Shown piece after piece: positions 1-24,357 of a stretch of 27,156 nt of DNA. Below the pieces are notes generated by a model. The model was not told where the DNA came from and ran no database searches. It saw only the letters and a program-made list of their open reading frames with translations. Position numbers and translations under genes: made by a program. The first letter of the stretch is position 1; every line of letters starts with the position of its first letter. The stretch is from a virus (taxonomy: Duplodnaviria; Caudoviricetes), in the IMG/VR virus record IMGVR_UViG_3300049049_000183, positions 1 through 27,156 of that record; one strand, written 5' to 3'.

Positions 1-242
1 CGCAGCTGATGCGCCTGCTCGACACCTCCAGCCGTGCCGAGGGCGTGCGCATCTACATCGGCGGCGAGAGCCAGGTCGTGCCGTACGAGGAGCTGTCCAT
101 CGTGTCCGCGCCCTACGAGGTCGACGGCCAGGTGGTCGGCACGCTGGGCGTCATCGGCCCGACGCGCATGGCCTACGACCGCATGATCCAGATCGTCGAC
201 ATCACGTCGCGGATGGTCGGGCAGGCGCTTTCCCAGCGTTGA
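1..242 (+). CDS. hrcA: Heat-inducible transcription repressor HrcA, C-terminal part (5' end outside window)
   Basis: Translation contains IYIGGES...[27 protein letters not shown], the characteristic HrcA C-terminal GVIGPTRM motif; TGA at 240-242. Confidence 0.95.
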
Positions 243-253: not shown

Positions 254-270
254 TAGAATCCGCGCCTCCT
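254..270 (+). promoter_or_regulatory. Probable stable-RNA promoter (-10 TAGAAT plus GC-rich discriminator) of the host tRNA
   Basis: TAGAAT at 254-259 followed by CCGCGCC, about 16 nt upstream of tRNA position 1; no convincing -35. Confidence 0.6.
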
Positions 271-275: not shown

Positions 276-314
276 GGGCCGTTAGCTCAGTTGGTCAGAG
301 CAGAGGACTCATAA
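276..314 (+). pseudogene. 5' half of host tRNA-Ile2 (anticodon CAT), truncated at the anticodon loop; prophage attachment junction
   Basis: GGGCCGT-TA-GCTC-AGTTGGTCA-GAGC-A-GAGGA-CTCATAA gives acceptor 5' strand, D arm, anticodon 5' stem and loop. The next bases (GGTCCC...) do not continue the cloverleaf and no T arm or CCA follows. C4/C5 favour Ile2 over Met. Confidence 0.9.
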
Positions 315-399: not shown

Positions 400-418
400 C
401 TTTCCACCAACTTTCCAC
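400..418 (+). repeat. Tandem direct repeat CTTTCCAC x2; candidate integrase arm-type binding sites
   Basis: CTTTCCAC at 400-407 and 411-418 (11-bp period), partial inverted copy GTGGAAG at 449-455, about 90 bp from the att core. Confidence 0.55.
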
Positions 419-468
419 TTTGGCCTGCGGCATATAAGTCACCGCCCGGTGGAAGGCTATCCGCGGCA

Positions 469-484
469 CTGTATGAAAATACAG
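469..484. promoter_or_regulatory. LexA (SOS) box
   Basis: CTGT-ATGAAAAT-ACAG, an exact CTGT-N8-ACAG match with AT-rich spacer in GC-rich DNA, 3 nt before ATG 488. Confidence 0.85.
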
Positions 485-487
485 TAC

Positions 488-859
488 ATGTTGGTCGACA
501 TCATCGAACTCAGGCACTGTGACCACGCCCGGGACCGCGATGCGGTGCGAGCGACGGTGCCTGTGCGGGTGACCATCGACATCGACAGGTTCTGGACGCA
601 CGAGAACCTGGACCGGCCCAAGGTCCACGCGAGCGTCCATCCGATGGTGCTCGAGCCGCTCTACGACGTGCGCATCCGATACTGGCGGCGCGTGAACATC
701 GTGTTGACCGGCCGCCAGCGGCAGGCCGTCCCTGGTCGCAAGAGCAGCGAGGCGATGTATGAGCAAACCTGGTGGTGCCGGCTCGTGTTGGACCCGACCG
801 TTCCACCCATGGCTCCCATCGCCAGGAAGCGTCTACCGGCGACCTACAATGCGTCTTGA
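488..859 (+). CDS. Hypothetical prophage protein (123 aa), probably SOS-inducible
   Basis: ORF with GC3-rich codons (MLVDIIELR...YEQTWWCRL); ATG 488 directly follows the LexA box (alternative ATG 473 lies inside the box). Confidence 0.7.
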   Translation: MLVDIIELRHCDHARDRDAVRATVPVRVTIDIDRFWTHENLDRPKVHASVHPMVLEPLYDVRIRYWRRVNIVLTGRQRQAVPGRKSSEAMYEQTWWCRLVLDPTVPPMAPIARKRLPATYNAS

Positions 860-861: not shown

Positions 862-1154
862 GGGCCGGACGCCGTGTTGGTTGCAGGCAGCGGACTCATA
901 GCAATAGTTGTGCACCCCGTCGGAAACGGCGGGTGTGAATGGCGTCAAATTCGGTGGAACCTGACGGCTGCGATGCAGCGCAAGGCAATGCCGAGCCAAG
1001 CCCCGCGAGGGGAAGGTGTAGAGACTAGACGGCGCCCGCCTAACGCTCGAAGAGAGCCATGGTGAAGGCATAGTCCAGGGAGGTCGGAAACGACCACAAA
1101 CCGGAATCCGTCAGCGAAAGCTCATCGTGGGTTCGAACCCCACCCGGCCTACCA
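862..1154 (+). tRNA. Prophage-borne intron-containing tRNA(CAU), probably Ile2; exons 862-899 and 1105-1154, 88 nt spliced, long variable arm
   Basis: Acceptor GGGCCGG/CCGGCCT, D stem GCC/GGC with GG in loop, anticodon stem GCGGA/TCCGT, loop CTCAT^AA, V arm AGC-GAAA-GCT, T arm GTGGG-TTCGAAC-CCCAC, A73 and encoded CCA. Possible -10 TACAAT at 845-850. Confidence 0.9.
900..1104 (+). ncRNA. Group I self-splicing intron, subgroup IC3 (Azoarcus tRNA-Ile type), 205 nt, no ORF
   Basis: IGS GTG pairing with exon CAT (G.U at splice site), P2 with GAAA loop, P3 GGCGTC/GGCGCC, P4 TTCGGT/GCCGAG, P6a CCCC-GCGA-GGGG, GTGTAGAGACTAGACGG, P7 GACTA/TAGTC in AAGGCATAGTCC, P9 GGTCG-GAAA-CGACC, ends CAAACCGG (omega-G 1104) then exon AATCCG. 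Confidence 0.96.
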
Positions 1155-2494: not shown

Positions 2495-3415
2495 TCAGTA
2501 CCAAATTTCGACCATGCCAGGGCCGCCAGGGCCGCCGCCGTTGCCGTTGGAACCGCCACCGCCACCGCCGCCAGGTGCGTGGCCTGTCTCGCCGCCGGAA
2601 TAGGCGTTGCCCGTGCCACCAACGCCGCCCATAGGGCTGCTACTGCCGTTGGCGGGATAAAGGGTGCTGCTAAAAACCGCGCCCATGCGGGAAGCTTCGC
2701 CGGTGAGGTTGATGTCGCCGCCCGAGGCGCTGCCGCCGTTGTGTGAGCCACCGCCGCCAGCAGTCATGCCAGCGCCAAAGCCTGTCGGCGGGCTTACAGA
2801 GCTGTCGCCGCCAGGGCCGGGCGAAGCGCCTGCAGAATTGCCAAAGGTGCCGCCATGCCCGACGACAATCGTCCAGACTTGGCCAGGAGTCACGTCGCGA
2901 ATGAACTCTGCATAACCTCCGCCAGCGCCGCCGCGGCCGAACGTGGTCGGTGTAGTGCCGGGGTTGCCTTCGCCACCTTCGCCGCCGCCCCATGCGCGGA
3001 AGCGGGCACGCGTAACGCCAAAGGGGACCGTCCAATAGAAGGTGCCGGCAATGTCGTAGCGCTGAACAGTCGTGAAGCCGCCACCACCTGGGGGGCCAAC
3101 CAACGAGATACCGGCAGGCCACGCGTCAGCGGACTTGGGGCCGTAGAGCGCGGTCGCAGTGATGTCAATGTAGAAGTCACCGTTGGCCCCAAGCGAGTCA
3201 TCCGGCGCGCCAGAGCCGCTGTGCAGGGAGTTGCCAGAACCTCCCGCGCCAATGAGTTCGGCGAGGTAGTTCGTGCGGGCTACCAGTGCGACGGCTTGGG
3301 CGTTCATCGTCCCGTCCGCGCCTCCCCGGGCGATGCAAGGGACGCTCAGTTGCGGCACATCGACCCAGGCCGGTGCGGCGACGACAACGCCATCGAAATC
3401 AGCAGGTGTGGACAT
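2495..3415 (-). CDS. Glycine-rich tail fibre / receptor-binding protein
   Basis: Fibre-type N-terminus (WVDVPQL..GGADG..NAQAVALVARTNYL), GSGAP..G.NGDFYID..LYGPK motif, Gly-rich C-terminal domain (WTVPFGVT..AWGGGEGG..GGAGGGY..GMVEIWY). Confidence 0.8.
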   Translation of the reverse strand: MSTPADFDGVVVAAPAWVDVPQLSVPCIARGGADGTMNAQAVALVARTNYLAELIGAGGSGNSLHSGSGAPDDSLGANGDFYIDITATALYGPKSADAWPAGISLVGPPGGGGFTTVQRYDIAGTFYWTVPFGVTRARFRAWGGGEGGEGNPGTTPTTFGRGGAGGGYAEFIRDVTPGQVWTIVVGHGGTFGNSAGASPGPGGDSSVSPPTGFGAGMTAGGGGSHNGGSASGGDINLTGEASRMGAVFSSTLYPANGSSSPMGGVGGTGNAYSGGETGHAPGGGGGGGSNGNGGGPGGPGMVEIWY

Positions 3416-3439
3416 TGTTGTTGTTCTCCATGCAGGGCG

Positions 3440-3976
3440 TCATCGCTTGATGCCGTCCAAGATTTGGCTGCCATCGAGGCGCCAGGTGCCGTCAAGGCGC
3501 AGCGGTGACTGCTGCGGGACGTCGACCGGGGTCAAGTGCTCCCAGTGCCCAAGTCCCCGCACGCCAATCTGAACCGGTGAGCGGCCGAAGCCCGCGACAT
3601 GCACAGTGATTTGCGCGCACAGCTCGTCGCTGCGATGCCATTCGACGTGGATGTCCACCTTCGTGGCCACACCGTCGTCGATGAGCCACTGAAGGGCCTC
3701 GGCGATGAATGCCTCGGCGAGACCAAGGGTCGCGGTCGTGTGCTTCGCTCGCGTGAGCAGCCACAGGCGCGAGCCGATGGCGTTGTTGGAGCTGTCCGCC
3801 CACCAGCCGCGGCGGTCGGTCGTGCCGTCTGTGAGAACGTCGTCCGGCCCAGCCAGGCGGTCGGTGAACAGCGAGATGAGGACTGCAGTGACGATGTCAT
3901 CCCCAGACTCCAGGTCGGCTCCCGCGAGCGACCAGTCGCCGTAGGTGGTGTGCCAGAGAGTGGAGATATCCGGCAT
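3440..3976 (-). CDS. Mu gp46-like baseplate wedge protein with C-terminal LDGxWxLDG extension
   Basis: TAVLISLFTDR...RGWWAD...IGSRLWLL.RAK...AEALQWLIDDGVA signature of the GP46 family. Confidence 0.9.
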   Translation of the reverse strand: MPDISTLWHTTYGDWSLAGADLESGDDIVTAVLISLFTDRLAGPDDVLTDGTTDRRGWWADSSNNAIGSRLWLLTRAKHTTATLGLAEAFIAEALQWLIDDGVATKVDIHVEWHRSDELCAQITVHVAGFGRSPVQIGVRGLGHWEHLTPVDVPQQSPLRLDGTWRLDGSQILDGIKR

Positions 3977-3978
3977 CG

Positions 3979-4692
3979 TTACGTCCGGATGATGTAGTTC
4001 AGCGCGACGTTGCGCGGCCGGGTTTCGGTGCCGATGACGCCCGGCGGGTTGACCGTGCCGTCGACGTCGCTTCCGTCGTTCGTCCAGTAGAGGTAGTCGT
4101 CGTTGTCGGTGCCAGCGTCAGAGCCGAAGTGGCCGCGGCTGTCGGAATGGCCGAACGGCGCGCCAGCTGGGTATTCGCCGAACGGGCTCGCGTGCTTGTG
4201 GGTTTGCACCTGGCCAGCTTGCGACGAACCGAGCGCACGACCGGCATCGACGCCACGACCGGCATCCGCGCCACGGATGAACTCGCCGCGCAGGTCAGGG
4301 ACGTTGAAGGTCGTGCTGCCGTCGCCGGCGCCGAACGTCGTCCCGATGGCAGCGAACAGCGCCGGGTAGTCGTCACGGCTTACCGCGGAGCCATCGCACA
4401 GCAACCAGCCCGTCGAGGGACTCGAGGATGCCGTGGCAACCACACTGCCTGTTGGCACTTGGTAGCGCATCTCCAGCGCCTGCTGAAGCTGCGTGACGTC
4501 GGTCGCCGAAGGCGTGAGGCCCGCGGCCTCGATGACACCAACAATTTCCTGCATCAGCTGATACCACGCGTAGGCACCGGGCACGGTGGGGGCTACCGAG
4601 CCCAACACGCCGTTGGTCGGGTAGCCCGCAGAGCCAGGTGACGGCGGGGTGGGCGGAGTCGGCGAAGCGCCGGACTCAAAAAGCATCTTCAT
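3979..4692 (-). CDS. Tail fibre protein with tail-collar domain
   Basis: Mu-type fibre N-terminus (QEIVGVIEAAGLTP..TQL), collar motif GWLLCDG.AVSR..YPALFAAIGT.FG.GDGSTTFNVPDLRGEFIRG, C-terminal ETRPRNVALNYII. Confidence 0.9.
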   Translation of the reverse strand: MKMLFESGASPTPPTPPSPGSAGYPTNGVLGSVAPTVPGAYAWYQLMQEIVGVIEAAGLTPSATDVTQLQQALEMRYQVPTGSVVATASSSPSTGWLLCDGSAVSRDDYPALFAAIGTTFGAGDGSTTFNVPDLRGEFIRGADAGRGVDAGRALGSSQAGQVQTHKHASPFGEYPAGAPFGHSDSRGHFGSDAGTDNDDYLYWTNDGSDVDGTVNPPGVIGTETRPRNVALNYIIRT

Positions 4693-4705
4693 TGGCAGGG
4701 TCCAA

Positions 4706-5338
4706 TCAGGCGAACACAACGTTGGTGTGCGCAGGGGCGTAGCGGCTGATAACCGCTTGCAGGGCCGCGTTGCCGCTCGCTCCGGTCACCAGCCATGAAA
4801 ACGCCCACGCGTTGCCGCGTATAGGAACCGTGCAGTCGTCCGTGGTGAAGGTCGGACGGTATTGCGTGATGCCGATGGTCACGCCGAACGCGGCAGCGAC
4901 CCCGACGAAGTAGGCGATGCTGGCGCCGCCCACGGAGGACAGCGCGGCAATGACCTGTGCCTGTTGGCCAGCGAGCGTTGGAGCGAGCGCTGTGCCGTCC
5001 GCTGGCAGACCGAGGGTCGACTGCCACTCCGCGAGCAGGTATTGGGACGATGCGGGGAACGCGTCTTCGATGAGGTCGTTGGCGTTCGCACTGACCCGTT
5101 GAAAACTCGCCGCCAGAGCTCGAACCACGGCCGTCTGCGTGGAGTCTGGGTCGCGTGGCCATGCCCGCCCCACCGGCAGGAGGTTCTGCAGCGCGCCGGC
5201 GTAGTCGGCCACCGTGTATTTCGGCGCGTTGCCAGGCGGCGTTACCGCGGCCAGAGCTGCGGCGTAGTCGGCGAGCGAGCCGCCACCGGGGACCGGCGAC
5301 ATGCCCCCGGCTTGAATGGCTTCGATGAGCGCGCTCAT
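4706..5338 (-). CDS. Mu gp48/YmfQ-like baseplate protein (DUF2313)
   Basis: DYAGALQNLLPVGRAWPRDP...LLAEWQSTLGLP...PAHT motifs; directly after baseplate J. Confidence 0.88.
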   Translation of the reverse strand: MSALIEAIQAGGMSPVPGGGSLADYAAALAAVTPPGNAPKYTVADYAGALQNLLPVGRAWPRDPDSTQTAVVRALAASFQRVSANANDLIEDAFPASSQYLLAEWQSTLGLPADGTALAPTLAGQQAQVIAALSSVGGASIAYFVGVAAAFGVTIGITQYRPTFTTDDCTVPIRGNAWAFSWLVTGASGNAALQAVISRYAPAHTNVVFA

Positions 5339-6468
5339 GCCCAGGTCACCGTGCCCATGGTCGGCAGATGGCCGACGGGGACAACGATGCTCGCTGCGGG
5401 AGTGGTGAGAACGCCGGCGCTGGTGCCCGGCACGTTGGAAATCGCGCCCTCCAGCGACAACACGCTAATGGTGCAGCCCAGGGCCGAGCCTTGTTCAGCA
5501 ATCACGGCAGCCAAGTTCGCCTGCACAGCGGCCTTGACGGTCGGGGAAGCAGCGCTCAGGCCGGTGATGGTTAGGTTGATGGGCTGCGGAACCGCAGCGA
5601 CAACGTAGACCAGGGCCGTGACGGGCTGCAGCGGCATGATGTAGTCCGCGACTGCCAGCAGGTCGCCGGTAGCCTGAACGCCGCGGGTCTCGCTGGTCGC
5701 TACGCCGTTCGTGCCTTGCGGGAAGCCACCGTGTGCGGCTTCCGCATGGTCGAACATCGGGTATACGACGACGCTTCCCGGGCCGTAGCCGTTCGGAGCG
5801 ACCCACACGCGCGTGACGCCTGGAACTTCGAGCGTCCACTGTTGATAGTCCGCGAGGCTGCCACCGTGACCAGGGTTGCGATACGCCCGCAGCATGCGGT
5901 CGCGAAGAGATTCATCAGTCTCCAGGTCGGCACCGCCGGTGAGCGCGTCAAACACCGTCACCGAGGACGGAACACCCGCGAACGGAACGCCAAAGGAGAG
6001 GATGGAGCCTGCAGGCGTGTTTTGAATCGCACCCACAAGGCCAGACGGGTCAGGAACACCCTTGACCGGAATCGTGAACGGTGAGGACGTGGACGTGGTG
6101 ATGGCCGCAGTCGTAACGAACTTCTGGCCGTCGCCGCGAACCAGCGTCGTGCCTTCTGGGATGACGACGCCTGGACCCGTCCCCATGTGCCCTTGAACGG
6201 AGCCGGTGGCGCTAGCCGCGGGCAGGCGATACACGCCCTTTACTGCTGCCCAGGACTCCAGGAACTCGCCCGTCGATGTGACCGGGGTCGACTGCTGCCC
6301 CACCCAGTCGATGTAGCCATAGAGCAGGTAGGTCAAGCCGGCGAGCGCCGTGCCCAGGATGCCCAGGTTGGAGAACCGGAGCAGCGGGTCTGAGCCAGGC
6401 AGCGCCGCGGCGATGTCTTGCGCGGCTTGCGTCTGTAGCTGTGAGATGGTTGGACGGGGAAACGGCAT
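5335..6468 (-). CDS. Baseplate J / Mu gp47-like protein
   Basis: MPFPRPT start, GGADLETDESLRDR..GG...DY..W..EVPGVTRVWV motif. Confidence 0.93.
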   Translation of the reverse strand: MPFPRPTISQLQTQAAQDIAAALPGSDPLLRFSNLGILGTALAGLTYLLYGYIDWVGQQSTPVTSTGEFLESWAAVKGVYRLPAASATGSVQGHMGTGPGVVIPEGTTLVRGDGQKFVTTAAITTSTSSPFTIPVKGVPDPSGLVGAIQNTPAGSILSFGVPFAGVPSSVTVFDALTGGADLETDESLRDRMLRAYRNPGHGGSLADYQQWTLEVPGVTRVWVAPNGYGPGSVVVYPMFDHAEAAHGGFPQGTNGVATSETRGVQATGDLLAVADYIMPLQPVTALVYVVAAVPQPINLTITGLSAASPTVKAAVQANLAAVIAEQGSALGCTISVLSLEGAISNVPGTSAGVLTTPAASIVVPVGHLPTMGTVTWA

Positions 6469-6479
6469 CGTTGTCTTTC

Positions 6480-7076
6480 TTATGCGATGGGCTGGCCAGT
6501 GGGATTGCCCGAGCTGGCGCTGGTGTGACGATGCGTCTTCAACGACAGGGCACCCAGCTTGACGTCAGGCGCGGAAATCACACCGGCCGAGGTCACGGGA
6601 CCGCCGAGGGTCACCGCGTCCGCACTGGTCTGCTCGATGACGCCATCAACGTGTAGGCCTTGGTTGGCGTGCAGCGGCGCATTGACGTCCACACGTGTAG
6701 CGTTCTGCAGGGTGATGGTGCGTGAGCCGCCGGCGTCAAGCACGATGCCCGAGGCAGAGAGGTGGATGTACTGGCCGCGGTTGTCGTAGATGGCAACGTC
6801 GCCGTTATCCAGCGCCTTCATGCGGAACTGCTGGTTGTTCGTTGCAACGATGATTCCGTTCGAGCGCTCGCCAGCGAGGAACACCACGATGGCGTCCGTG
6901 CCCACGGGAGGCACTGACGTGAACCCGTACTCGGCCGCCCGCGGAACGTCTCCAATGAGCTCATCGGCGCCCATGCGGACCTGCATGGTTTGCACAACGC
7001 CTGCGTCGTTGGTGTCCGTTGAGCGGCCACGGCCCACGACTTGCTGGATACGCCGCCAGAGGTGCTGCATCGACAT
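6480..7076 (-). CDS. Baseplate spike, Mu gp45-like
   Basis: EYGFTSVPP..AIVVFLAGERS..GDVAIYD motif; C-terminal HxH (THRH) metal-binding tip. Confidence 0.92.
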   Translation of the reverse strand: MSMQHLWRRIQQVVGRGRSTDTNDAGVVQTMQVRMGADELIGDVPRAAEYGFTSVPPVGTDAIVVFLAGERSNGIIVATNNQQFRMKALDNGDVAIYDNRGQYIHLSASGIVLDAGGSRTITLQNATRVDVNAPLHANQGLHVDGVIEQTSADAVTLGGPVTSAGVISAPDVKLGALSLKTHRHTSASSGNPTGQPIA

Positions 7077-7079
7077 CGG

Positions 7080-8210
7080 TCAGCCCCCCGGCTTCGGGGC
7101 AACCCCCGACAGCTCTTTGATGGGGTTGAGCTTGTTCAAGTCGTAGGGCTCTGGCTCGTAGGCGCCACTCAGCATCAGCGTCAGCTCGCACGAAGTGCCG
7201 GCTTCGTTGCGGTGATACGTGACCTCGCCGATGGTCAAGTTCGCGCTCTTGACCTGCAGCGTCGGCAGCTCGACCAACGCCTGGGTGTTCGGGCGATACA
7301 GCACGCCAGCGGAATCACGCCATGAGTCGGTGATGAGCTGCACGACGTTCGAGCGGCCGATGCGTCGGTTCTTCTCCCACGCCGCTCGCTGGCCAGCGAT
7401 GGCGAGGCTGGAGACACCGTTGATTTCGACGATAAAAATCTTGCGGCGATGCCGTGGCACCGTCGGGTCCTGCACTGCGGCGATGAGGTCGGAGCCAATG
7501 CCGGCGTCCTTGAACATCTCGACGCTTTGCATGTAGGACTCGTATTCGCTGTAGCGCTGGTCCAGCATTGCCGAATAGGTGGCGCGCTGGACGTTGATGC
7601 CTTCCCGGAACCCGGAGGCGGCTTGTTCCTCTTGCAGCGCTGAGAGCATCAGACTGCCATCGGGCATGTCATACGCGAGCAGCTGTGCTGCGCGACAGAG
7701 CCGCTCGATGATTTCAAACGGGGTCTCGCCGCGGTTCAGGTTGAACTGGGGAATGGCCGGGCCGTCGTTGCCATCGTGCGAGGCCACGGTGATGCCGTAG
7801 GGCGCCGCCAGCTTCTGGGCAATCTCAAGGACGGAGGAGCCGACGATTTGGCCACCAGGCCACTCGGCTGAGCAGTCCACCAGGTCGGCGCACTTGCTGC
7901 GGCCCACGATGGTGACGCTGTGCGACCGCGCGTCGTAGGTGCGCGTGACGCGGTCCACATAGCCGGTCAGCACAAGGTCCCGCCCAATCTTCACCTTGAC
8001 CGTGGCGCCGCGCAGAATCTTGATGGCGTCCTGGCCGGGGATGAACTCCGTCAGGCGCACTTCAAAATCGGAGGGGCACCGCTCGACGCCGCGCGTGATG
8101 CGCACGTCGGTCCAGCCAGTCCACGCGAGACCGTCGATTTCCAAAGTCACGTCGTCGTCAGGCAGAGACCTCTGCTCAACAATTTCGGTGGAAGTGGCGT
8201 CGACGGTCAT
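7080..8210 (-). CDS. Baseplate hub, Mu gp44 (gpP)-like
   Basis: GWTDVRITRGVE..F, TGYVD, GRSKCADLVDCSA, GETPFEIIERLCR motifs. Confidence 0.92.
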   Translation of the reverse strand: MTVDATSTEIVEQRSLPDDDVTLEIDGLAWTGWTDVRITRGVERCPSDFEVRLTEFIPGQDAIKILRGATVKVKIGRDLVLTGYVDRVTRTYDARSHSVTIVGRSKCADLVDCSAEWPGGQIVGSSVLEIAQKLAAPYGITVASHDGNDGPAIPQFNLNRGETPFEIIERLCRAAQLLAYDMPDGSLMLSALQEEQAASGFREGINVQRATYSAMLDQRYSEYESYMQSVEMFKDAGIGSDLIAAVQDPTVPRHRRKIFIVEINGVSSLAIAGQRAAWEKNRRIGRSNVVQLITDSWRDSAGVLYRPNTQALVELPTLQVKSANLTIGEVTYHRNEAGTSCELTLMLSGAYEPEPYDLNKLNPIKELSGVAPKPGG

Positions 8211-8214
8211 CAGG

Positions 8215-9525
8215 TCAGGAGCTCAAGGCGGAGAAGGTGGTTGGCATGAACGCTGGGTTCGGGCAGTCAGCACGCCGGACCAATTCGGGCTCGCGCCCGA
8301 TGTCTTGATACAGCCGCTGCGCCAAGACCAGCGAAGGGACAGAGCTAGGTGTAGCTACCGTCACCAGGGATGGCAGCCTCGCGCCTTTGGCGTTCATGTC
8401 GCGGATGACCTCGGCCCGCGCAGCTCGGAGCGCAGCGTAGACAGCGTCGTTGCCCTGCTCACCCGCCACCTTGATTTCGGAGTCGACGTAGCTCAAGACC
8501 TCATCGCGCACCGCAGTGGCTTCCAGTGCCGTGCTGGGCTGGTAGTCGCCCGAAGCGGTGCAGAGCTGGGTGACGGCGAGCCGGCGCAGGTAGTCGGCCG
8601 TAGAGGCGGAGGTGAGCGAGGTCGCAGCCGCCAACTTGGTCATGGCGATGGCTGTGGCAATCGCAGACGCTGGCGAGAAGCTGGCTGCCTTGACCGCGGC
8701 CACATGCCCCGTGACGGCCAGTGTGAAGAGCGCTGACGTTGTCGCCGTCAGGTTGGCAGCTGCGGAGGACACTGCCCGAGCCGACACGTCAACGGAGAGG
8801 CGAGCTGCAGCTGCGGCTCCGTAGAGCGCCGACACAGGCTTGGAGACAGTCTGGATGGCACCGATGACGATGCCGGTGGCCTGCCCGACCATCCGGCCGA
8901 AGTTGCCGGAGGCCTGCGTAGCAATGCTGACCAGGTTCGTGGCGCTTGCCACGGCGGATTTGCTGCGCGAGAGCCAGTCCGTTGACACCGCGGCCACCGT
9001 GGGCTGAACGGGAGCATTGGCGGCGAACTGAGCGTTGATTTCGTCGAGCCATTGTTGCGTTGACTTGGACTGCACCTCTGCGGCAGCAGCGTTGATGGCG
9101 TCGGCGCTAGCCACCGCAGTGCCCGGAAATTGGCGAGCCGCGGTGTCTTCGACAAACGTGGCCTCGAACTCGAACACCCGGCCGCGTTCCCAGTGCTCGT
9201 TGGTAGAGAAATCCAGCAGCTTGACAGTGAGGCGGCCGAAAGTGGGATGCACAAGCTCGCCGGGGCCTGGCTTCTCGCAGGCCGCAATGAGGGCATCCCG
9301 CTGGGCGATGGCGTCGTCGCCGACGACAAACCCAGAGATGGAGTAGCGCCGCAGGCCGCGGCCCAAGTCCTCCACCCATGCGGTGTCTTTGAAGGGGTAC
9401 TCATGGACGGCGGTCCGGCGACCGAACTTCGCGCTTCCGCCGAACGTCTTGAAGGGCACGCCACGCCAGGAGGCCGGCTGCAGCTGAGCGAAGAACGAGC
9501 TGGGGTTCTGTGTAGTAGTCATCAC
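8215..9525 (-). CDS. Mu gp43 (N)-like DNA circularisation / tail protein
   Basis: ASWRGVPF..GRRTAVHEYPF.D..WVEDLGR..GPGELVHPTFG; C-terminal PSLVLAQRLYQD..R..EL. Confidence 0.92.
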   Translation of the reverse strand: MMTTTQNPSSFFAQLQPASWRGVPFKTFGGSAKFGRRTAVHEYPFKDTAWVEDLGRGLRRYSISGFVVGDDAIAQRDALIAACEKPGPGELVHPTFGRLTVKLLDFSTNEHWERGRVFEFEATFVEDTAARQFPGTAVASADAINAAAAEVQSKSTQQWLDEINAQFAANAPVQPTVAAVSTDWLSRSKSAVASATNLVSIATQASGNFGRMVGQATGIVIGAIQTVSKPVSALYGAAAAARLSVDVSARAVSSAAANLTATTSALFTLAVTGHVAAVKAASFSPASAIATAIAMTKLAAATSLTSASTADYLRRLAVTQLCTASGDYQPSTALEATAVRDEVLSYVDSEIKVAGEQGNDAVYAALRAARAEVIRDMNAKGARLPSLVTVATPSSVPSLVLAQRLYQDIGREPELVRRADCPNPAFMPTTFSALSS

Positions 9526-11102
9526 GAGTCGATGTCAGCCATGGAACGGGTGACCTTCACGGAAGCAGGCTGGCCACCTGAAGAAGCGTTCGAGACGACC
9601 ATGCCCCGCGGCGCGTTCTCGAACTTGACGTGTAGGGTGTGGTTGAGCGCTGTCTGTCCCGCCTGAGCGGTATCGCCGCCTTGTCCGGGAGGGTTGGACG
9701 GTGGGGCGATGGGCGGAAGCGCGAGCTGTTTGTTGGCCGCGGCAAGGTAGTCCTCGACGGAGTCACCTTTGGCGGGTGGCTTCGGCGGCGCGAACTTGGC
9801 GATGTTGTCGCTGACGGTCGCGAGCCCGTCCCGGTCTGTCGGGAGCGCGGGCCGGGGAAGGGCACCCGACAGCAGGCCCGGCGGCACGGGAATGGCCGGC
9901 GGCAGGCGGCCCATCACCACCGACGTATGCGGCGGTGGGATAAATGGAGCGGCAGCGCCCGCGGTAGGCGATGCGAGCTGGACCCGCGCCGCCTTGGCAC
10001 CCGCAGGTGCAGCGCCTGTCGCCGCACCTGTTGTAGACGGCGCAGCGGGCACTGCCGTCTTGCTCTTGGAGCCCGCTGCTTTCAGGGCAAGAAGCCCCGG
10101 CAGAAGCGCGGTGCCTCCTGGCATCACGGCAGACAGCGCAAACAGAGACGAAGTCGGCATGTTGGCCGTCTTACGCTCCAGCGTATCCAAGAAGCTGCTA
10201 GAGCTGTCCGCGTTGGCCAAGTCGTCGATGCCCCGGATGATTTTCTCTAGAACCGGGTAAACCTTCGAGCCGATGGTGTTGCCCAGGCCGTCCGCGGAGG
10301 CCTTCAGCTTGTTGAGCGCCTTGGCGTAGGCCTCGGCGTTCTTGATAGCCTGGGGGCTCAGCACAGCGCCCAGCTTGTCGGCCTGCTTCGCGTTCTCCTC
10401 GAGCGCATCGGCTCCCTTCATCATCTGAGGAAGGACCTTCACGTAGCCGACCATGTTGGCGGCAATCTCTTTAGCTTGTGGCGTGAGGTCGGTGCGCGCG
10501 GAGTAGTCGGCAAGCTTCTTGAGGGCGTATTCGACGTCCCAAGCGCCGTCCTTCGTGCGGCGGAGCTCGATTCCCGCTGCGTTGAAGAACTGCAGCAGCG
10601 GGCCGCCTTCGTAGTAGGCGTTGCGCATCGAGCGGCCAATGTTGGCCATCGCCTCCTGCATGTCGTCGCCTGAGCCACCCATGAGCTTCACGGCGCCCGC
10701 GTAGCGCTGCAGGGCATCGGTGGAGATGCCTGTGACGGTAGAGAGCTGAGAAACCCTGAAGCCTGCGTTCGCGACTTTGGACCCCAGGACTGTCAGACCT
10801 GCGCCGATGGCGGCGATGCCAGCGACTACGCCCCCCGCTGCGCCGGCCGCTCCAATACCGAGCAGCCCCTCCATCGACGCCGAGCTGATTCCGATGTTTT
10901 TCGCTAGCTTTGCTGCGGAGTTTGCTGCGGTGCCGAAGCCCTTCGCCAGCGCCGGGAGGTGCATCTCCTTGCCCAGGGCACCGAGGGACCGGCCCATGCG
11001 CTGCACGGGCCGAACCGCCTTGCCAAACCGCTCGTTTATGCGATTGACGACCGCAGTGGCTTTGTCGACCGCGGTGACGGTGATTTGAAAGGTGTTGGAC
11101 AC
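9522..11102 (-). CDS. Tape-measure-like protein (526 aa)
   Basis: ITVTAVDKAT N-terminus, Ala/Gly-rich helical body, position between tail chaperone and gp43; GTG start. Confidence 0.8.
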   Translation of the reverse strand: MSNTFQITVTAVDKATAVVNRINERFGKAVRPVQRMGRSLGALGKEMHLPALAKGFGTAANSAAKLAKNIGISSASMEGLLGIGAAGAAGGVVAGIAAIGAGLTVLGSKVANAGFRVSQLSTVTGISTDALQRYAGAVKLMGGSGDDMQEAMANIGRSMRNAYYEGGPLLQFFNAAGIELRRTKDGAWDVEYALKKLADYSARTDLTPQAKEIAANMVGYVKVLPQMMKGADALEENAKQADKLGAVLSPQAIKNAEAYAKALNKLKASADGLGNTIGSKVYPVLEKIIRGIDDLANADSSSSFLDTLERKTANMPTSSLFALSAVMPGGTALLPGLLALKAAGSKSKTAVPAAPSTTGAATGAAPAGAKAARVQLASPTAGAAAPFIPPPHTSVVMGRLPPAIPVPPGLLSGALPRPALPTDRDGLATVSDNIAKFAPPKPPAKGDSVEDYLAAANKQLALPPIAPPSNPPGQGGDTAQAGQTALNHTLHVKFENAPRGMVVSNASSGGQPASVKVTRSMADIDS

Positions 11103-11128
11103 GGTGACCGCCTGTTCTTGTTGTTAGC

Positions 11129-11308
11129 TCATGCGCCAGCTTGTTGGGTGCTGGCGATGCGCTTTGATTGGTCGTACCACCACAGCAGCTTGGGCAATGT
11201 CAGCTGCTCCGCGTCTTTTGGCCCCCAGCGATAGAAATAGGTGACGTCGGCGATTACGTCGAGGATGTGGACGCCTTCTCGGGGAGTTTGTTGAATCCGT
11301 CCAAAAAA
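11129..11308 (-). CDS. -1 frameshift extension of the tail assembly chaperone (P2 gpE'-like)
   Basis: Slippery T TTT TTG (11308-11302) opens a 59-codon -1 frame ..IADVTYFYRWGPKDAEQLTLPKLLWWYDQSKR..; TGA at 11131-11129. Confidence 0.8.
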   Translation of the reverse strand, partial: FFGRIQQTPREGVHILDVIADVTYFYRWGPKDAEQLTLPKLLWWYDQSKRIASTQQAGA

Positions 11309-11526
11309 TCAGCGCACCTCGCCAAGTCACGTTGCGTCATCTTGTTCAGGACCTGTGGAGGGACCTTGCCCACGAGCTCGATGAGCTTGAGGACGCTGCG
11401 GAGCCCAGTGAAATCGGCTGCGGCGAGTAGATGCTCGACCAGCGGCTGAGTTAGCGTGAGCGACTCGTACACGGCGGTGCCCACGGTGATGGGCTTCTCG
11501 AAGGTCAGGTGGAGGGTGTCGTCCAT
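11254..11526 (-). CDS. Tail assembly chaperone (Mu gp41/P2 gpE-like)
   Basis: 90 aa between tube and tape measure; L..PI...Y..LTL..P and M..RD....DF pattern. Confidence 0.82.
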   Translation of the reverse strand: MDDTLHLTFEKPITVGTAVYESLTLTQPLVEHLLAAADFTGLRSVLKLIELVGKVPPQVLNKMTQRDLARCADFLDGFNKLPEKASTSST

Positions 11527-11529
11527 TGC

Positions 11530-11898
11530 TTAGGCCTCCTCGACCAGCGGACCCTGGAACTCCACGTCGAACGTGCCTTCCTGAGTCTTCACTTCTTGGG
11601 CGCTGACGGTCCACATTCCGCCGCCGGTGATGTTCTTGCCGTTGGCCAGCTGAGCAATCACGGAGACGTTTGTCATGGCATTGATGCTCGCAACGGAGAG
11701 GTTCGACGCATCGCGCAACTGCCCTTTGATGAAGCCGGCGACCGGCTTCTCGGAGTAGCCGTGAACGGAGTCCTGTCCAACGAGCGTCTCGCGCTCGACG
11801 GTGGCAACGCGGTACTCGAGGTCGCCCGCGAGCATGTACTGGACGCCGTCGACGCTGATGTATGCGACGCCGGCAAGGCGTGGGGATGCGATGGCCAT
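11530..11898 (-). CDS. Tail tube protein (Mu gpM-like)
   Basis: RLAGVAYISVDG..RETLVGQD.VHGYSEKP..LANGK motif; AAGGAG RBS. Confidence 0.92.
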   Translation of the reverse strand: MAIASPRLAGVAYISVDGVQYMLAGDLEYRVATVERETLVGQDSVHGYSEKPVAGFIKGQLRDASNLSVASINAMTNVSVIAQLANGKNITGGGMWTVSAQEVKTQEGTFDVEFQGPLVEEA

Positions 11899-11918
11899 AG
11901 GCGGCTCCTTGTGAGATG

Positions 11919-11942
11919 AAAAAAGCCGCCCTCAGGCGGCTT
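11919..11942 (-). terminator. Terminator-like hairpin between sheath and tube genes
   Basis: Minus strand GCCGCC-TGAG-GGCGGC followed by TTTTTT. Confidence 0.7.
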
Positions 11943-11966
11943 GGGGTAACTTGTGTAGCTACCGAC

Positions 11967-13448
11967 TCACTGGAGGCGAAATTGGGCCAGCACAGCGAAG
12001 ATGCGCAGCTGGGCAACCAAGGTAGGCGGATACAGCACGTCGACCCGGTTCGGGTTGGTCTTGTTCTGCTCGACCACCAGTTCTTGCTTGAACTGTTCGA
12101 TGTTCTGCAGATAGCCCTGCGCTTCGAGCGCGCGTGCTTGGTTAATGATGGCCGCGCGGATGATGGCCGGCGTCACGATGGCCGCGCCGGCGGCGAACCG
12201 GGTGCCGTCGGCGGCCAGCTTGACGCGTGCGAACTTCGAGGTCACTACGGAGCGCAGGTTGCGTAGCACGTAGGCCAGCGTGTAGAGCGTCTCGACTTGC
12301 AGGTAGCTGTTGTCAGCGTCGCCGAACGCGTTGGTCTGGTAGGTCGTGATGGCGTTCTCGATGCTCACGGTGCCATCGGCGGCCACGTCGAACGTGGAGA
12401 TGCCGGTGTAGAGCAGCGTGTTGCGGTCAGTCAGCGCAAACCGGCTGGCCAGGGGAGGCGGCAGGATGCCTGGCAGCACGACGGTCTGCAGCGGCAGCGC
12501 GGGGTCGACCTTCAGGCTGGCCGCAGCTGCTCCGCAGTAGACCGCGGCGCGCAGGTGTGCGGGCGTCGGGCAGTTTTTGAAGCCGATGATGGACTCGTAG
12601 GGGTTGTTTCGCGCCGCACCGAGGGTCGTCAGCGCGCCGAGCGTGCCATCAGCCGAGGCGAACACACCGCCGTAGAGCTGCTCGCTCCAGGACCAACGAC
12701 CCGTCGAGGCGTTCAGCAGCGTCTTGAGCGCGTCCAGCGACGTCGTGTCGGTATACGGGGAGCAGATGAAGTCGAACGTGTGCGAGCCCAGGTTCGCCAG
12801 AGCAGCGGTCAGGTCCGGAGCGCCGGCACCGCCATGAGGCTGGGTGATGCTGAACGTCAGGCCAGCTGGGGTCGCTTCGCCACCCAGGGTGCCACGGTAG
12901 TTCGTCTGGAGGATGTAGCCGTTGCCGCATGGTCCCTTGTTGGCGGCGGTCAGCGTTACTTCGGCGCTGTCGGCTACCGCAGTGAACGGGCAACTCGTGT
13001 CGGAGTTGATGAGCGCGGCCAGGGCGGTCGCAATCTGGGCGGGCGTCTGCGTCGTCAGCACCGGAAGCTGGTAGCGAACGTCGCCGATGTAGAGGCTCAG
13101 GACGCCGTTCGCGGTGGCAGCTGCCGTGAACTCAATGGAGCCAACTGCGGCGACGGAGCCGGCGGCGTCAGCCAGAGGGAGATACCAGACTTCGCCCAGC
13201 GAGTCAGCCAGGCGATATTTCGCCAGCATCGCCGCGAGCATCGACCGCGGTCCGCCAACAGCTTGTGCGTCGCCCAGGCCCTGAGAGATGACGGGGACGT
13301 TGGCAACGCCGGTGCCGTCAGCGGTCATCTGACCAATGATGAGAGACCGTTGGGTGGCAGTCGCCGAGTTGGCGTGCGAGTTGTCAACTTCCGCGTAAAA
13401 GAGCGGAACGCGGATGTTCGACGGAAGGTTTTTGAAGGGGATGGTCAC
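11967..13448 (-). CDS. Tail sheath protein (Mu gpL-like)
   Basis: IPF..LPSNIRVPLFYAEVDNS N-terminus; TTYQTNAFGDADNSYL; NPNRVDVLYPP.L..QLRIFA C-terminus. Confidence 0.96.
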   Translation of the reverse strand: MTIPFKNLPSNIRVPLFYAEVDNSHANSATATQRSLIIGQMTADGTGVANVPVISQGLGDAQAVGGPRSMLAAMLAKYRLADSLGEVWYLPLADAAGSVAAVGSIEFTAAATANGVLSLYIGDVRYQLPVLTTQTPAQIATALAALINSDTSCPFTAVADSAEVTLTAANKGPCGNGYILQTNYRGTLGGEATPAGLTFSITQPHGGAGAPDLTAALANLGSHTFDFICSPYTDTTSLDALKTLLNASTGRWSWSEQLYGGVFASADGTLGALTTLGAARNNPYESIIGFKNCPTPAHLRAAVYCGAAAASLKVDPALPLQTVVLPGILPPPLASRFALTDRNTLLYTGISTFDVAADGTVSIENAITTYQTNAFGDADNSYLQVETLYTLAYVLRNLRSVVTSKFARVKLAADGTRFAAGAAIVTPAIIRAAIINQARALEAQGYLQNIEQFKQELVVEQNKTNPNRVDVLYPPTLVAQLRIFAVLAQFRLQ

Positions 13449-13678
13449 GAGCGGCGCTCCTGCTGAATGTTGTTGGAATTGGCCTTACGCGGCGGATTGG
13501 CCGGAGCGGCACTCGGGTCGACGCCAACGCTAACGTCCGCGTCAGCAATGCGCCGAGCCCAGTAGTGACTGAGCTCGACCAAGCGGCCCTCCGCGGGCAG
13601 ATATCGAGCCGGCGTTCGGACTACCGCCGGGTCGACGATTTGCATGCCCGGCTTGGGAACGACGTAGACGTGTGACAT
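13445..13678 (-). CDS. DUF2635 / Mu gp38-like small tail protein
   Basis: VVPKPG..I.DP....LP.EG..V....YW.RR..D.DV motif; overlaps the sheath start. Confidence 0.85.
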   Translation of the reverse strand: MSHVYVVPKPGMQIVDPAVVRTPARYLPAEGRLVELSHYWARRIADADVSVGVDPSAAPANPPRKANSNNIQQERRS

Positions 13679-13742
13679 TGCGTGGCGCGGCATTCGGTTT
13701 GTGTGGCTCGTATAGGCACCTGCCACGCGCACCTGCGCCAGC

Positions 13743-13856
13743 TCAGGCTTCCATGCCTGCCGCGAAGGCCTCGGCGGCTTCACGAGTGGCGAAAGTCCGG
13801 AAGACCACGCCACCGATGACGACTGCGTAGCGGCCGAAGTAGGGTTTGATTTCCAT
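13743..13856 (-). CDS. Small hypothetical protein, 37 aa (MEIKPYFGRYAVVIGGVVFRTFATREAAEAFAAGMEA)
   Basis: ATG 2 nt after the upstream TGA, GC3-rich codons; below the ORF-track cutoff. Confidence 0.6.
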   Translation of the reverse strand: MEIKPYFGRYAVVIGGVVFRTFATREAAEAFAAGMEA

Positions 13857-13858
13857 CG

Positions 13859-15244
13859 TCAGTCCTTCACTGCTTTGCGCTCAAAGCCGGCTTTCAATGC
13901 GGTGTAGTCGCAGTTCAGAGCCCTGTTTGGTGTGCCGTTGAAATACATCAACACGTAGTTGTCAGCGCCGTAGCCGAGGCCGTTGACCACGCCGCCAAAG
14001 CTGTCATGCGGATGGCGTGCGGAGGTCTGGCGCACGAAGACATCGACCACGCCGCCTGTGGGCGTGCTGTGGCGAATCTCGAAGAATCCCAGCTTGGTGT
14101 ATGCGAGGAAGGCGGTTGGCTGGTCTTCGCCCACCAGTGGGCGCACGACCGCGGACTTCTCTGGGGCGCCGACGACCATGCTCACGGCTTGCGCGCACAT
14201 GACGTCGTTCTCGGCGTCGTAATACACGCCCACGCGTGAGCGCATGGCACTGTCGCTGTCCATGACGCAGATGAAAGCCTTCTCAGCGGGGTGATACGCC
14301 AGCACACGACGCACCGAGCTTCGGTTGGCGTTCAGTGCGGCTTGGCTGACCGAGGTGTCGCCGTTGGTCACGCGCAGGTTCAGCGTCTCGCCAAGGTCCC
14401 AAAGCAGCCACTTCGCGAAGGTCAGGCTGCCCAGTCGCATCGCGCATACCTGCGCACCCTCGCCGGCGGTTGAGTCCGCGACGAAGGAACACTGCGTCTC
14501 GCTGCCCCAGTCATCAAAGAGGAAAGCGAATTCGGCCACCAGGTCGAGTTCGCCTTGCGTGTTGATGACGAACTGACCCATATCGCCATCAGGCAACATG
14601 CGCAGCACTACCAGCTTGGTCTGGCCGTCCGCTGTCTTGACCGCCTTCAGCACCAGATACAGGCAGCTCGGCTCGCCAGGCACGAACAGGGCGCTGACGA
14701 CAGCGGCGCTGCTGTATTCGGCGGAGAGGTCGTAGCCGAAGGAGAAGGACGAGATGTCGCCCAAGTTCGGGTCGTAGATGGGCTCGCCCACGCTGTGTGC
14801 GTAGCCCACCAGCGCGTTGCCGTCCCCAATCTGGTCAATAACGGTCAGCCCGGCATCGACGGCCCTCGCGCTCTCGGCAACTGCGTCGTAGTAGGCGCAG
14901 CCCTGTTCGGTGGCGTTCGTCACCTGCGTGTCCAGGAACGTGAAGCCAGCCGGTGCGGGGTGGTTGCCCTGGAGCTTGATGACGGCGCCGGATGGCAGGC
15001 CGGTGGCGGGCGAAGAAAGCTCGCCGATGGCATCAAGCACCGGCTGCAGGTCTGCGCTTGGGATGGCGGCGATAGCTGACATCAGCGTCGCCAGGTTTGC
15101 AGAGGACATGCCCGCGACGGCGTCGATGACCGCCTGCTTGTCTGCGTCTACAAGCGCGTCGATTGCCGCTTGGGCGGCCGCAACGGATTCCGTGGTTGCA
15201 AGGCCGGACAGGTTCGGGTTGATGTAGGTTGAGAGCAGGGACAT
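13859..15244 (-). CDS. Hypothetical 461-aa acidic protein, possible virion appendage
   Basis: Start overlaps upstream stop (TGATG); helical Ala-rich N-terminus, then beta-rich body; inside the structural operon. Confidence 0.75.
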   Translation of the reverse strand: MSLLSTYINPNLSGLATTESVAAAQAAIDALVDADKQAVIDAVAGMSSANLATLMSAIAAIPSADLQPVLDAIGELSSPATGLPSGAVIKLQGNHPAPAGFTFLDTQVTNATEQGCAYYDAVAESARAVDAGLTVIDQIGDGNALVGYAHSVGEPIYDPNLGDISSFSFGYDLSAEYSSAAVVSALFVPGEPSCLYLVLKAVKTADGQTKLVVLRMLPDGDMGQFVINTQGELDLVAEFAFLFDDWGSETQCSFVADSTAGEGAQVCAMRLGSLTFAKWLLWDLGETLNLRVTNGDTSVSQAALNANRSSVRRVLAYHPAEKAFICVMDSDSAMRSRVGVYYDAENDVMCAQAVSMVVGAPEKSAVVRPLVGEDQPTAFLAYTKLGFFEIRHSTPTGGVVDVFVRQTSARHPHDSFGGVVNGLGYGADNYVLMYFNGTPNRALNCDYTALKAGFERKAVKD

Positions 15245-16173
15245 CAGACGAGCCTCCAGCCAAGGGTGGAAACGAAGCGCAGCGTGATGCACACGCGGCG
15301 GTCGAGAGTGAGGTCCTCAACAACGCCGAGCAGCGGGTGGCCGCCGCAGAGGACGATGGGTGGGATGGTCGTGGCAACGTCCAGGGTCACCGTGGCCCCA
15401 TCAGTGGGGTCGGCCGGCAGCGCGACCTGCGTCGCGTCCGTCGTGCTGGCCAGGACGTAGTAGCCGCGGTCCACTGTGGTGACGGAGGCACCTGTGACGA
15501 TGACTGGGGTAGGAGAGACAGCAGCTGCCCCAACGGTGGCTGCTGCCGCCGCGGCAGCAGCGGCAGATGCGGCGGCTTGTGCGGCAGCTGTGGCGGACGC
15601 GAGGGCGTCGAGCTGTATTTGTGGGTTCACATCGTCTCCTTCGGAGCAGGTGTTTGGGTCGGCCCACAGTTCGGTGACGACGTTCACGGCCAGCGTTTCA
15701 GCCTCCGGGTACCAAGTGGGGTGGATTTCGGTGGGGTCGAAGTACTCGAAGGTCTCGATGTCGATGGTCATGTGCAGACCGGCGATGTGGAACTCGCCGT
15801 CTGCACTGACAGTGGAGTGCGTGGTGACGTTCGCGACCTGCTGACACATCTCAATGAGGGCCGGCTCACCAAGCACCGCGTTCTCGACACGTGCGCCAAG
15901 GTCCTCGAGGGCGTCCTGTGCGTCTTCGGCGGTGCGCGCCAACACGCGCGCGATGAGCTCGAGCGAGACCGTCGTTGTGAAGTTCGGCAGCGTCTTGGCG
16001 TTCGAGCTCTTGCGGTCAGGGCCGCAGCGCAGCTTGACCTGAGGGAAGTCGGTGGGCTGCGGACTTTCCGTGGCCTGCGAGTCCCAGACGCCAGGCGACT
16101 CAACGAGAACGCCCTCGAGCCGCTGGAGGGCGGCCAAGGCAAGTTCACGAAGTTTGCGACGTGCGAGCATCAA
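15244..16173 (-). CDS. Tail terminator/completion-like protein fused through a poly-Ala linker to a fibre-adaptor-like domain
   Basis: Position after head-tail joining gene; N-domain PNFTTTVSLE..D.LE.L...VE.A; C-domain LPADP.DG.TV...EDLTLD..FV..LGWRLV. Confidence 0.65.
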   Translation of the reverse strand: MMLARRKLRELALAALQRLEGVLVESPGVWDSQATESPQPTDFPQVKLRCGPDRKSSNAKTLPNFTTTVSLELIARVLARTAEDAQDALEDLGARVENAVLGEPALIEMCQQVANVTTHSTVSADGEFHIAGLHMTIDIETFEYFDPTEIHPTWYPEAETLAVNVVTELWADPNTCSEGDDVNPQIQLDALASATAAAQAAASAAAAAAAAATVGAAAVSPTPVIVTGASVTTVDRGYYVLASTTDATQVALPADPTDGATVTLDVATTIPPIVLCGGHPLLGVVEDLTLDRRVCITLRFVSTLGWRLV

Positions 16174-16523
16174 GAGATTCGATTCAGTTCGATACGGGCA
16201 TGCCCGTGGCCGTCGGGCTTGCCGGCTTTGACCGTGTAGCGAACGCCTGTGCTTACGCGGACGAGTTCGTCCTTTTGGGCCGCCTCTGGCTTAAACCCTG
16301 CGGGGAATTCCGACAGCCGAACGCCGCAGACCGGCCGGACCGAAATCACACCGGGGTCGCCGTTGCCGTCGAGTGCCACGTTGGTGTAGGCGGTGTCGAA
16401 CACGCCAGTGATATCGAACGGGGACCCGCTGCGCGGGTAGTACGTGATGCGCTCGCCAAAGACCGCGTTGAGCGGTGCAAGAACGAGGGCGTCCCAGTCA
16501 ATGGCCATTTCGTTGCGCTCCAT
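16170..16523 (-). CDS. Head-tail joining (head closure) protein
   Basis: IDWD..VL.P...VFGE..Y.P..G..F.ITGVFD..PDGHG..L motif; start 16523 or 16508. Confidence 0.8.
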   Translation of the reverse strand: MERNEMAIDWDALVLAPLNAVFGERITYYPRSGSPFDITGVFDTAYTNVALDGNGDPGVISVRPVCGVRLSEFPAGFKPEAAQKDELVRVSTGVRYTVKAGKPDGHGHARIELNRIS

Positions 16524-16577
16524 AGGGGAGCGACGGAATGCCGCTCTTGCAACGTATAGGCAAGGGTCGCTAGGGGC

Positions 16578-16606
16578 TTGCCGCGCGAAACCCCGCCCTG
16601 TAGATT
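16578..16606 (+). promoter_or_regulatory. sigma70-like promoter of the moron
   Basis: TTGCCG (16578-16583), 17 bp, TAGATT (16601-16606); GGGAGG RBS at 16620-16625. Confidence 0.6.
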
Positions 16607-16631
16607 ACAAAAGCTAACAGGGAGGCTTAGG

Positions 16632-16985
16632 ATGAAGAAACTTGCGCTCGTGGGCATGGCTACGTCCCTGCTGGGCATCGCTTCGGTGCCTGCCTCTGCG
16701 GCAACTAATGACTGCCAAGCTAAGGTGACCTTCGTGTCGGCAGTGCCGAAGGACGGCCAAGTGACCGTCACGTTCGATATCAAGACGTCGTGCCCTGGAA
16801 GCACTGGTCGGTTTGATTACACGTATCAGACCGCTCAGCGTGCCGGCGTCTCTACGACGAGGACGCTGCCATCCTGGAACGCAGCGAACAAGCAGAACTT
16901 CCAATGGACCGACGTGTTCAGCGAGCCTTCGACGGTGACCAACGTCAAGGTTGTGCCGGGCTCCATCCAGTCTTCCAAGTCATGA
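16632..16985 (+). CDS. Moron gene 1: small exported beta-rich protein (117 aa)
   Basis: Sec signal peptide MKKLALVGMATSLLGIASVPASA; two Cys; strong RBS; opposite strand to the late operon. Confidence 0.82.
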   Translation: MKKLALVGMATSLLGIASVPASAATNDCQAKVTFVSAVPKDGQVTVTFDIKTSCPGSTGRFDYTYQTAQRAGVSTTRTLPSWNAANKQNFQWTDVFSEPSTVTNVKVVPGSIQSSKS

Positions 16986-18118: not shown

Positions 18119-18133
18119 CGCGTAGGCAGGAAG

Positions 18134-18189
18134 AAGCCCCCGAGGCTTGAGGCCTGGGGGCTTGGGGCAGAAGGCCTCTTATGAGGCTC
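18134..18189. terminator. Two hairpins between the convergent moron and capsid genes
   Basis: AAGCCCCC-G-AGGC-TTGAG-GCCT-GGGGGCTT (18134-18163) and GCCTC-TTAT-GAGGC; U tracts weak. Confidence 0.6.
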
Positions 18190-18195
18190 TTGGGA

Positions 18196-19230: not shown

Positions 19231-19256
19231 GGTCGGTCTCTTTCTTGTTATGGGGA

Positions 19257-19628
19257 TTAGCGCGCGACGATGGTCGCGGCCTTGAGCTGAGCGAGGCCGG
19301 CCGCGGCGTCAGCCGGGTTTGCCCACACGAGTTCGCCAGCGTTGACCTCGGCGAGGCGAACGACGACGGTCGCTGGCTGCGCGGCAGCGCTTGCCTTCTT
19401 GCCGGCGAACAGGATTGCCACAGCCACTTCGGTGCCGTCGCTGTGTGCGGAGGCGTAAGGGGCGTACTTGCCGTCAGCGGTCTTGACGCCGAGGACGGTG
19501 CCGGCGCTCAGCGCGACATTGGTCGCCGCCAGCGTGACTTGCTCGAACGCGAGGTGACCGTAGCTGTCAGCGACGGAGACGAGGAAGCCACCATCGTGAC
19601 GTGCTTCGATGAGAGGGGTTTGGGCCAT
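19257..19628 (-). CDS. Head decoration protein (lambda gpD-like)
   Basis: E.RH.GGFLVS.A, L.AGTVLG, DGTEVAVAIL, VVVRLAEVN..ELVW motifs; upstream of capsid. Confidence 0.9.
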   Translation of the reverse strand: MAQTPLIEARHDGGFLVSVADSYGHLAFEQVTLAATNVALSAGTVLGVKTADGKYAPYASAHSDGTEVAVAILFAGKKASAAAQPATVVVRLAEVNAGELVWANPADAAAGLAQLKAATIVAR

Positions 19629-19677
19629 GGTTCAGTCCTTTGGTGACTTGTTGTTGTTCGGTATAGGCACCGCCGCT

Positions 19678-20349: not shown

Positions 20350-20391
20350 GTTGGGAACCTCAGAGGGAAGTTGTGATGTGTAGGAACCGCG

Positions 20392-21231: not shown

Positions 21232-21302
21232 CGAAGGGGAGGCTCAACACGGGCAGATGCCGCGTGTAGCAACCGACGCGCAGGGCGTCGGTTTTCCTTC
21301 GA

Positions 21303-23293: not shown

Positions 23294-23295
23294 GT

Positions 23296-23493: not shown

Positions 23494-23572
23494 TTGCGGG
23501 CGGCGGAAGATGTGCGGGCTGCGGGACTGCCCCGGGTTGTCATGTGCCGTATAGGCACAGACCGTTGGCCGC

Positions 23573-24334: not shown

Positions 24335-24357
24335 GTCGCGCTCCCGGGACGTGGCGC

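Follow-up and report, generated by a model that had tools for sequence, protein, structure and literature searches.

An intron-split tRNA-Ile2 gene on a betaproteobacterial prophage as probable replacement for the host gene that it breaks, and as a possibly weakened integrase target

The prophage in the DNA analysed here (the window: the whole of IMG/VR record IMGVR_UViG_3300049049_000183, 27,156 nt) interrupts the anticodon loop of a host tRNA-Ile2 gene and brings a second tRNA-Ile2 gene, divided by a group I intron, which likely replaces the broken one. It is probably an intron-bearing form of tRNA-dependent lysogeny, and break-and-replace at the tRNA-Ile2 locus can be put forward with high confidence. 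The comparisons below lean, with less assurance, towards the intron having been kept for making the spare gene less usable by integrases, a protection that would be partial and leaky. Coordinates of the features are given in Table 1.

Table 1. Features of the window, with strand and basis of assignment.
Feature	Position	Strand	Basis
hrcA 3′ end, host	1..242	+	92% DNA identity to hrcA end of L255
-10-like hexamer, host tRNA promoter	254..259	+	consensus match only
Host tRNA-Ile2(CAU) 5′ half, orphan	276..314	+	tRNA identity, ARAGORN
Anticodon loop, probable 7-bp att core of left junction	308..314	+	tRNA identity ends at 314; 7 bp common to related attR sites
8-bp direct repeat, 11 bp spacing, putative integrase arm-binding sites	400..418	+	shuffles and arms of related elements
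136-aa ORF between junction and tRNA	449..859	+	no relative found
-10-like hexamer, possible promoter, 11 bp before phage tRNA	845..850	+	seen in sequence; promoter scan did not call it
Phage tRNA(CAU) 5′ exon, long-variable-arm family	862..899	+	ARAGORN
ORF-less group I intron, Azoarcus class (Ile2.5Ug), 205 nt	900..1104	+	Rfam, ARAGORN, alignment, tree, helices
Phage tRNA 3′ exon: long variable arm, T arm, encoded CCA	1105..1154	+	ARAGORN
DUF3644 gene, converging on phage tRNA	1165..2157	-	PHROG and Pfam searches
Prophage structural module: contractile tail, baseplate, lambda-like head, portal, terminase	2495..27043	-	PHROG matches

The left end of the window is host DNA. Its assignment to hrcA comes from a complete protein of the same gene cluster, which is HrcA by Pfam (a Pfam search of the 1..242 fragment by itself gave no match), and among the loci compared this hrcA end was nearest to Roseateles- and Leptothrix-type genomes, at 87–92% identity. 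The tRNA sequence that follows is identical to the 5′ half of the hrcA-linked CAU tRNAs of relatives and stops directly after the anticodon loop, where non-tRNA sequence marks the start of the prophage. The host gene is not rebuilt at this junction; the right junction (attR) lies outside the contig, as does the integrase end of the prophage, no integrase gene being present within the 27,156 nt. The arm repeat nevertheless points to a tyrosine integrase by its likeness to the arms of related elements: a repeat of this type arises in 22/2000 shuffles, and the same spacing at a similar offset is found in elements with PF00589 integrases. A serine integrase was considered and rejected, as all integrases found beside related junctions were PF00589 (several elements had none in the stretch examined); in G530 and G709, trb genes adjoin attR.

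Searches for close relatives of the prophage found none. The ORF between junction and tRNA had no PHROG, Pfam or viral-contig relative and no Atlas match worth naming, a search with the portal gave one locus at 57%, lacking any tRNA feature, and phage and plasmid BLAST gave no full-length match. The head-tail block contains one ORF of opposite orientation (16904–18118, +; 404 aa), which matched neither PHROG nor Pfam.

Default tRNA calling overlooks the phage gene, which ARAGORN reports as a tRNA(cat) at 862–1154 with a 205-nt intron only if introns are permitted. The acceptor stem contains C865-G1147 and C866-G1146, corresponding to C4:G69 and C5:G68, which we take to be the TilS determinants of tRNA-Ile2; by these pairs and its CAU anticodon the tRNA is of the tRNA-Ile2 type, with lysidine modification and isoleucine charging predicted. 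Members of the same long-arm CAU family occupy the Ile2 position, after rpoD, in L574, L129 and L167, and the 3′ half of the family forms an att-type junction in five viral loci. No second long-arm tRNA with the window's intron was recovered by a viral scan (six matches, none to a tRNA) or a metagenome scan (one short-arm artefact). Leader and trailer (857–868 and 1144–1157) can add several pairs to the acceptor helix, and the ending of the leader recurs before intron-bearing genes in relatives. This type of CAU tRNA, with its long variable arm and with A8/U14 swapped, also lies unannotated on Cupriavidus megaplasmids such as pHG1 (H37–H46).

The intron is inserted between anticodon positions 36 and 37. 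Its match to RF00028 (43.9 bits, E 1.2e-09) is below the 50-bit gathering score, and no Rfam match reached gathering level; helices P1, P2, P3, P4, P7, P9, P9.0 and P10 all pair, and the core is invariant across a 10-sequence alignment. A U-G pair at the 5′ splice site (U899-G910), a terminal G (G1104), the post-anticodon site and the conserved core together fit class Ile2.5Ug (subgroup IC3), that of the group I intron in Azoarcus pre-tRNA-Ile (Williams 2020, 10.1101/2020.01.27.920355). The Azoarcus intron, as described in the available text, likewise follows the anticodon U, with U(-1), a terminal G, a length of about 205 nt and no ORF; the window's copy differs in lying in a long-variable-arm tRNA on a prophage. 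That text, in the part available, makes no link between Ile2.5Ug introns and elements that break host genes. In an intron tree containing some duplicate rows with false starts, and with bootstrap unsettled, only one 12-row clade is used here (100/99): it places the window's intron with those of short-arm tRNAs from the host's relatives, and the intron therefore entered the long-arm tRNA secondarily. Four RNA-run assemblies covered parts of the intron thinly, with no spliced joint, and their contigs may be DNA.

The window's intron core matches 1,272 PLSDB plasmids at 60–80% identity; the one inspected (NZ_KT818627.1; L578, about 2430–2730) has, between IS3000 and aac(3)-IId, a tRNA-Leu(UAA) gene that is not annotated, looks complete and is interrupted by a group I intron. 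A related intron is present in at least 12 Rhodothermales loci (L230, L231, L238, L239 and others), in a different tRNA, apparently tRNA-Arg, with loop start CUUCU, and several viral contigs (L003, L006, L018, L098, L099, L114 and L118) carry the same intron class within what appears to be one conserved protein-coding gene.

The preliminary description of this DNA held that the spliced phage tRNA would be identical to host positions 305–314, and the same 10 bases are indeed found; within the window the 10-mer is unique, at 305. Such a match is expected between any two CAU tRNAs with this stem, and so reflects shared tRNA structure rather than a chance-defying coincidence. Related attR sites whose arm is of the same type have only the 7-bp loop in common with the host, so the att core is probably 308–314. 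The further claim, that the intron splits the 10-base sequence in the DNA, needs rewording. Lost are the final base of the loop and all of the right stem arm, while 892–900 retains 9/10 bases, 6/7 of the loop among them, because the intron starts with A; 22/130 distinct intron starts are AA, which keeps all seven loop bases. The effect is thus better described as removing the right half-site than as splitting the core.

How a replacement gene might come under selection for such a change can be set out from the broken gene at 314. A tyrosine integrase would cross over inside the 7-bp loop, so that the host 3′ half would be orphaned at the unseen right end and the lysogen would depend on the phage copy. 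With a predicted self-splicing intron, that copy would be whole as RNA and interrupted as DNA. An intron-free copy with a host-like stem, by contrast, would give the element an attB of its own, where recombination would cut away an attP arm, collapse the element, or allow another element to destroy the only working gene. What the intron takes out is presumably the right integrase half-site, and a changed stem seems to serve the same purpose in elements that lack an intron.

The arrangement recurs in related loci. A genome scan with the intron's 3′ end covered 122 of about 260 loci, a set thus chosen by the intron; among 80 long-flank loci, 21 distinct places had the same order, with a core gene, the orphaned 5′ half and then a short arm leading to a complete gene that carries the intron. 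Thirty intron-bearing genomes contained 18 intron-free 3′ halves (in 14 genomes), all of them orphans and 2 to 60 kb away where placeable, and no complete intron-free Ile2 copy matching the pattern. An orphan 5′ half with an intron-bearing replacement is a common layout in betaproteobacteria.

Since the first set of loci had been selected by the intron, genomes were also drawn evenly, 401 from the order of G009 and 381 and 371 from two families. The three draws yielded 36 genomes with a broken host gene, counting those whose orphan 5′ half itself matched the pattern and excluding the two draw centres: the replacement was intron-bearing in 26, intron-free in eight and unknown in two. Four further genomes, in which the broken gene was found by context alone (G601, G504, G477 and G468, all intron-bearing), were excluded from this count, and at least 12 of the 26 intron-bearing cases are related, being Polynucleobacter-like; in G699 the orphan half and the intron-bearing gene are on different contigs. 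In the order draw, with about 18 unclassified genomes left out, the intron was present in 5/9 classified replacements versus 23/371 intact genes (Fisher p 1.6e-4), a background that includes genomes with an intron after U33 as well as the unpublished genome G053; the family draws have no background of their own, and the pattern used in them overlooks about a quarter of the orphans. Among order-draw genomes without the 5′-half pattern, 15/41 carry the intron after U33. Three intron types occur at two positions, position 33 being followed by one of them and position 36 by the other two, and the same arm precedes different types in G298 and G173.

Several further observations came from these genomes. 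The native tRNA-Ile2 is interrupted after U33 by a different intron in 15/401 order-draw genomes, against eight with Azoarcus-position types (L619–L629, L613, L616). In G076, one Ile2 copy has an insertion-sequence-like stretch within its intron (L530, about 5413), while a second copy nearby, with another intron type, is intact. Very small genomes of 0.5–0.9 Mb (L482, L483, L462 and L360) have an intron-bearing Ile2 directly after rpoD.

The stem beside the core largely separates the two kinds of replacement. Positions 29–31 were host-like in 26/26 intron-bearing replacements and in 2/8 intron-free ones (p 2e-5, or about 0.005 when related cases are roughly merged into 12 and 6 lineages). In six of the eight intron-free replacements this stem was changed, at position 29 and its partner, each of these with a separate attR. 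The two with a host-like stem are G878, which looks like a collapsed element, its genome containing no further 3′ half, and G385, which is ambiguous, so that no clear intron-free, host-like replacement was seen on a whole element. The commonest donor, the intron-free host gene, is thus the one least seen on whole elements, as a filter against a second attB would predict. One integrase family contains both intron-bearing and changed-stem elements (in an integrase tree that is mostly unresolved). Introns are also present in the changed-stem tRNAs of four viral contigs (L327, L330, L332 and L333); a changed stem therefore does not exclude an intron.

Whatever protection the intron affords is incomplete. 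It had been proposed that the intron could stop the integrase, or competing elements, from using the replacement gene; the enrichment of introns in replacement genes and the altered stems of intron-free ones agree with this, but a complete block is not supported. At four attR-type junctions (L211/L526, L217/L525, L269 and L293) an element arm is joined to the loop and the whole intron, and related integrases therefore do recombine with intron-bearing genes. At one of the four the last loop base is of the intron-free type, which would fit a mismatched crossover. Besides an arm-intron junction, G003 contains a tandem pair of orphan halves, and the orphan half of L237 has a changed stem, so the stem-change route is leaky too. 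Arm-intron junctions were found in 2/26 selected genomes, both known beforehand, versus extra 3′ halves in 9/80 intron-free genomes, numbers too few to show protection from competitors.

Group I introns have been described as potentially neutral and mobile by homing (PMC3984707, as far as available), and the replacement could be real while the intron has no role in recombination, mobile DNA often meeting intron donors and a few intron-bearing founders spreading by hitchhiking or homing drive. We consider this somewhat unlikely. In its favour, ARAGORN found intron-split tRNAs in 88/119 viral loci with the intron motif, so the presence of an intron alone needs no att explanation; many of the intron-bearing cases are related; intron-bearing genes are still recombined; and the A or AA with which the introns start is explained by the splicing pairings P1/P10. 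Yet hosts are about 94% intron-free and have given no clear host-like, intron-free replacement to a whole element, the same arm precedes different intron types, introns of about 200–280 nt leave no room for a homing nuclease, and introns also occur in viral tRNAs whose stem has changed.

Shielding by the intron could also hold elsewhere and not in this prophage, if its foreign long-arm tRNA was already a poor attB and the intron a late passenger. Outside the stem-loop the phage exons differ widely from the host gene, stem position 28 differs as well, a single loop base is lost, and the long-arm family is intron-free in 29/29 viral-contig matches. However, an orphan half with one of those 29 next to it as replacement was not seen; if the 3′ stem of the host is like that of relatives, the match around the loop would extend over 13 bp; and in L260 an element with the same arm type is integrated in a gene with this stem. 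On balance this account seems improbable. Least probable, and by our estimate very much so, is that a 5′ half carried by the phage restores the host gene at the right end, outside the contig, the phage tRNA serving lytic translation or evasion of an anticodon nuclease: attR is not seen and G385 may be such a case, but in every clear case examined related elements end right in an orphan 3′ half.

The prophage resembles actinobacteriophages with tRNA-dependent lysogeny, as defined by Guerrero-Bustamante and Hatfull 2024 (PMC10865867), in its probable short core in the anticodon loop, a host tRNA that is not rebuilt at the left junction and its phage tRNA of the same isotype; the sites listed in the available part of that paper include tRNA-Ile2-CAT with a 10-bp core (OneUp). 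It differs in that the host is betaproteobacterial and the replacement intron-split. Within that part, no introns are reported for the phages ('intron' occurs only among the references), and the replacement gene is not discussed as a competing attB. Canonical tRNA-targeting islands and prophages cross over in the same loop, and extra 3′ halves of this kind were those of the 9/80 intron-free genomes; they rebuild the gene from a 3′ half borne on attP, however, and need no replacement.

The idea of a protective intron already exists for archaea: in the accessible portions of two reviews (PMC4390854, PMC4033280), Randau and Soll 2008 are credited with proposing that disruption of a tRNA gene guards it against integration. 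The likeness lies in the interrupted tRNA gene as a worse target for site-specific recombination. As cited there, that proposal concerned the host's own genes in archaea, either split or with introns removed by proteins, whereas here it is a mobile element that would benefit and the intron is a ribozyme. No paper describing intron-split replacement tRNAs was found in a search that left most subscription journals outside its reach.

More broadly, and tentatively, elements that break an essential tRNA may have repeatedly recruited group I introns as masks at the DNA level, with stem recoding as the alternative, and it may mainly have been through them that Azoarcus-type introns without a nuclease were spread and fixed in betaproteobacterial chromosomes; we hold this to be somewhat less likely than not. 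If the reading of the intron favoured here is right, a group I intron gains a selectable job at the level of DNA, and the old idea that tRNA introns guard against integration becomes directly testable. Lysogens of this kind appear to lack tRNA-Ile2, because default tRNA calls overlook intron-split genes. tRNA-dependent lysogeny would extend to Proteobacteria and to conjugative elements, and the patchy distribution of Azoarcus-type introns would have a route: arrival on replacement genes, after which the orphan half would decay, as seems still to be visible upstream of the gene in L423.
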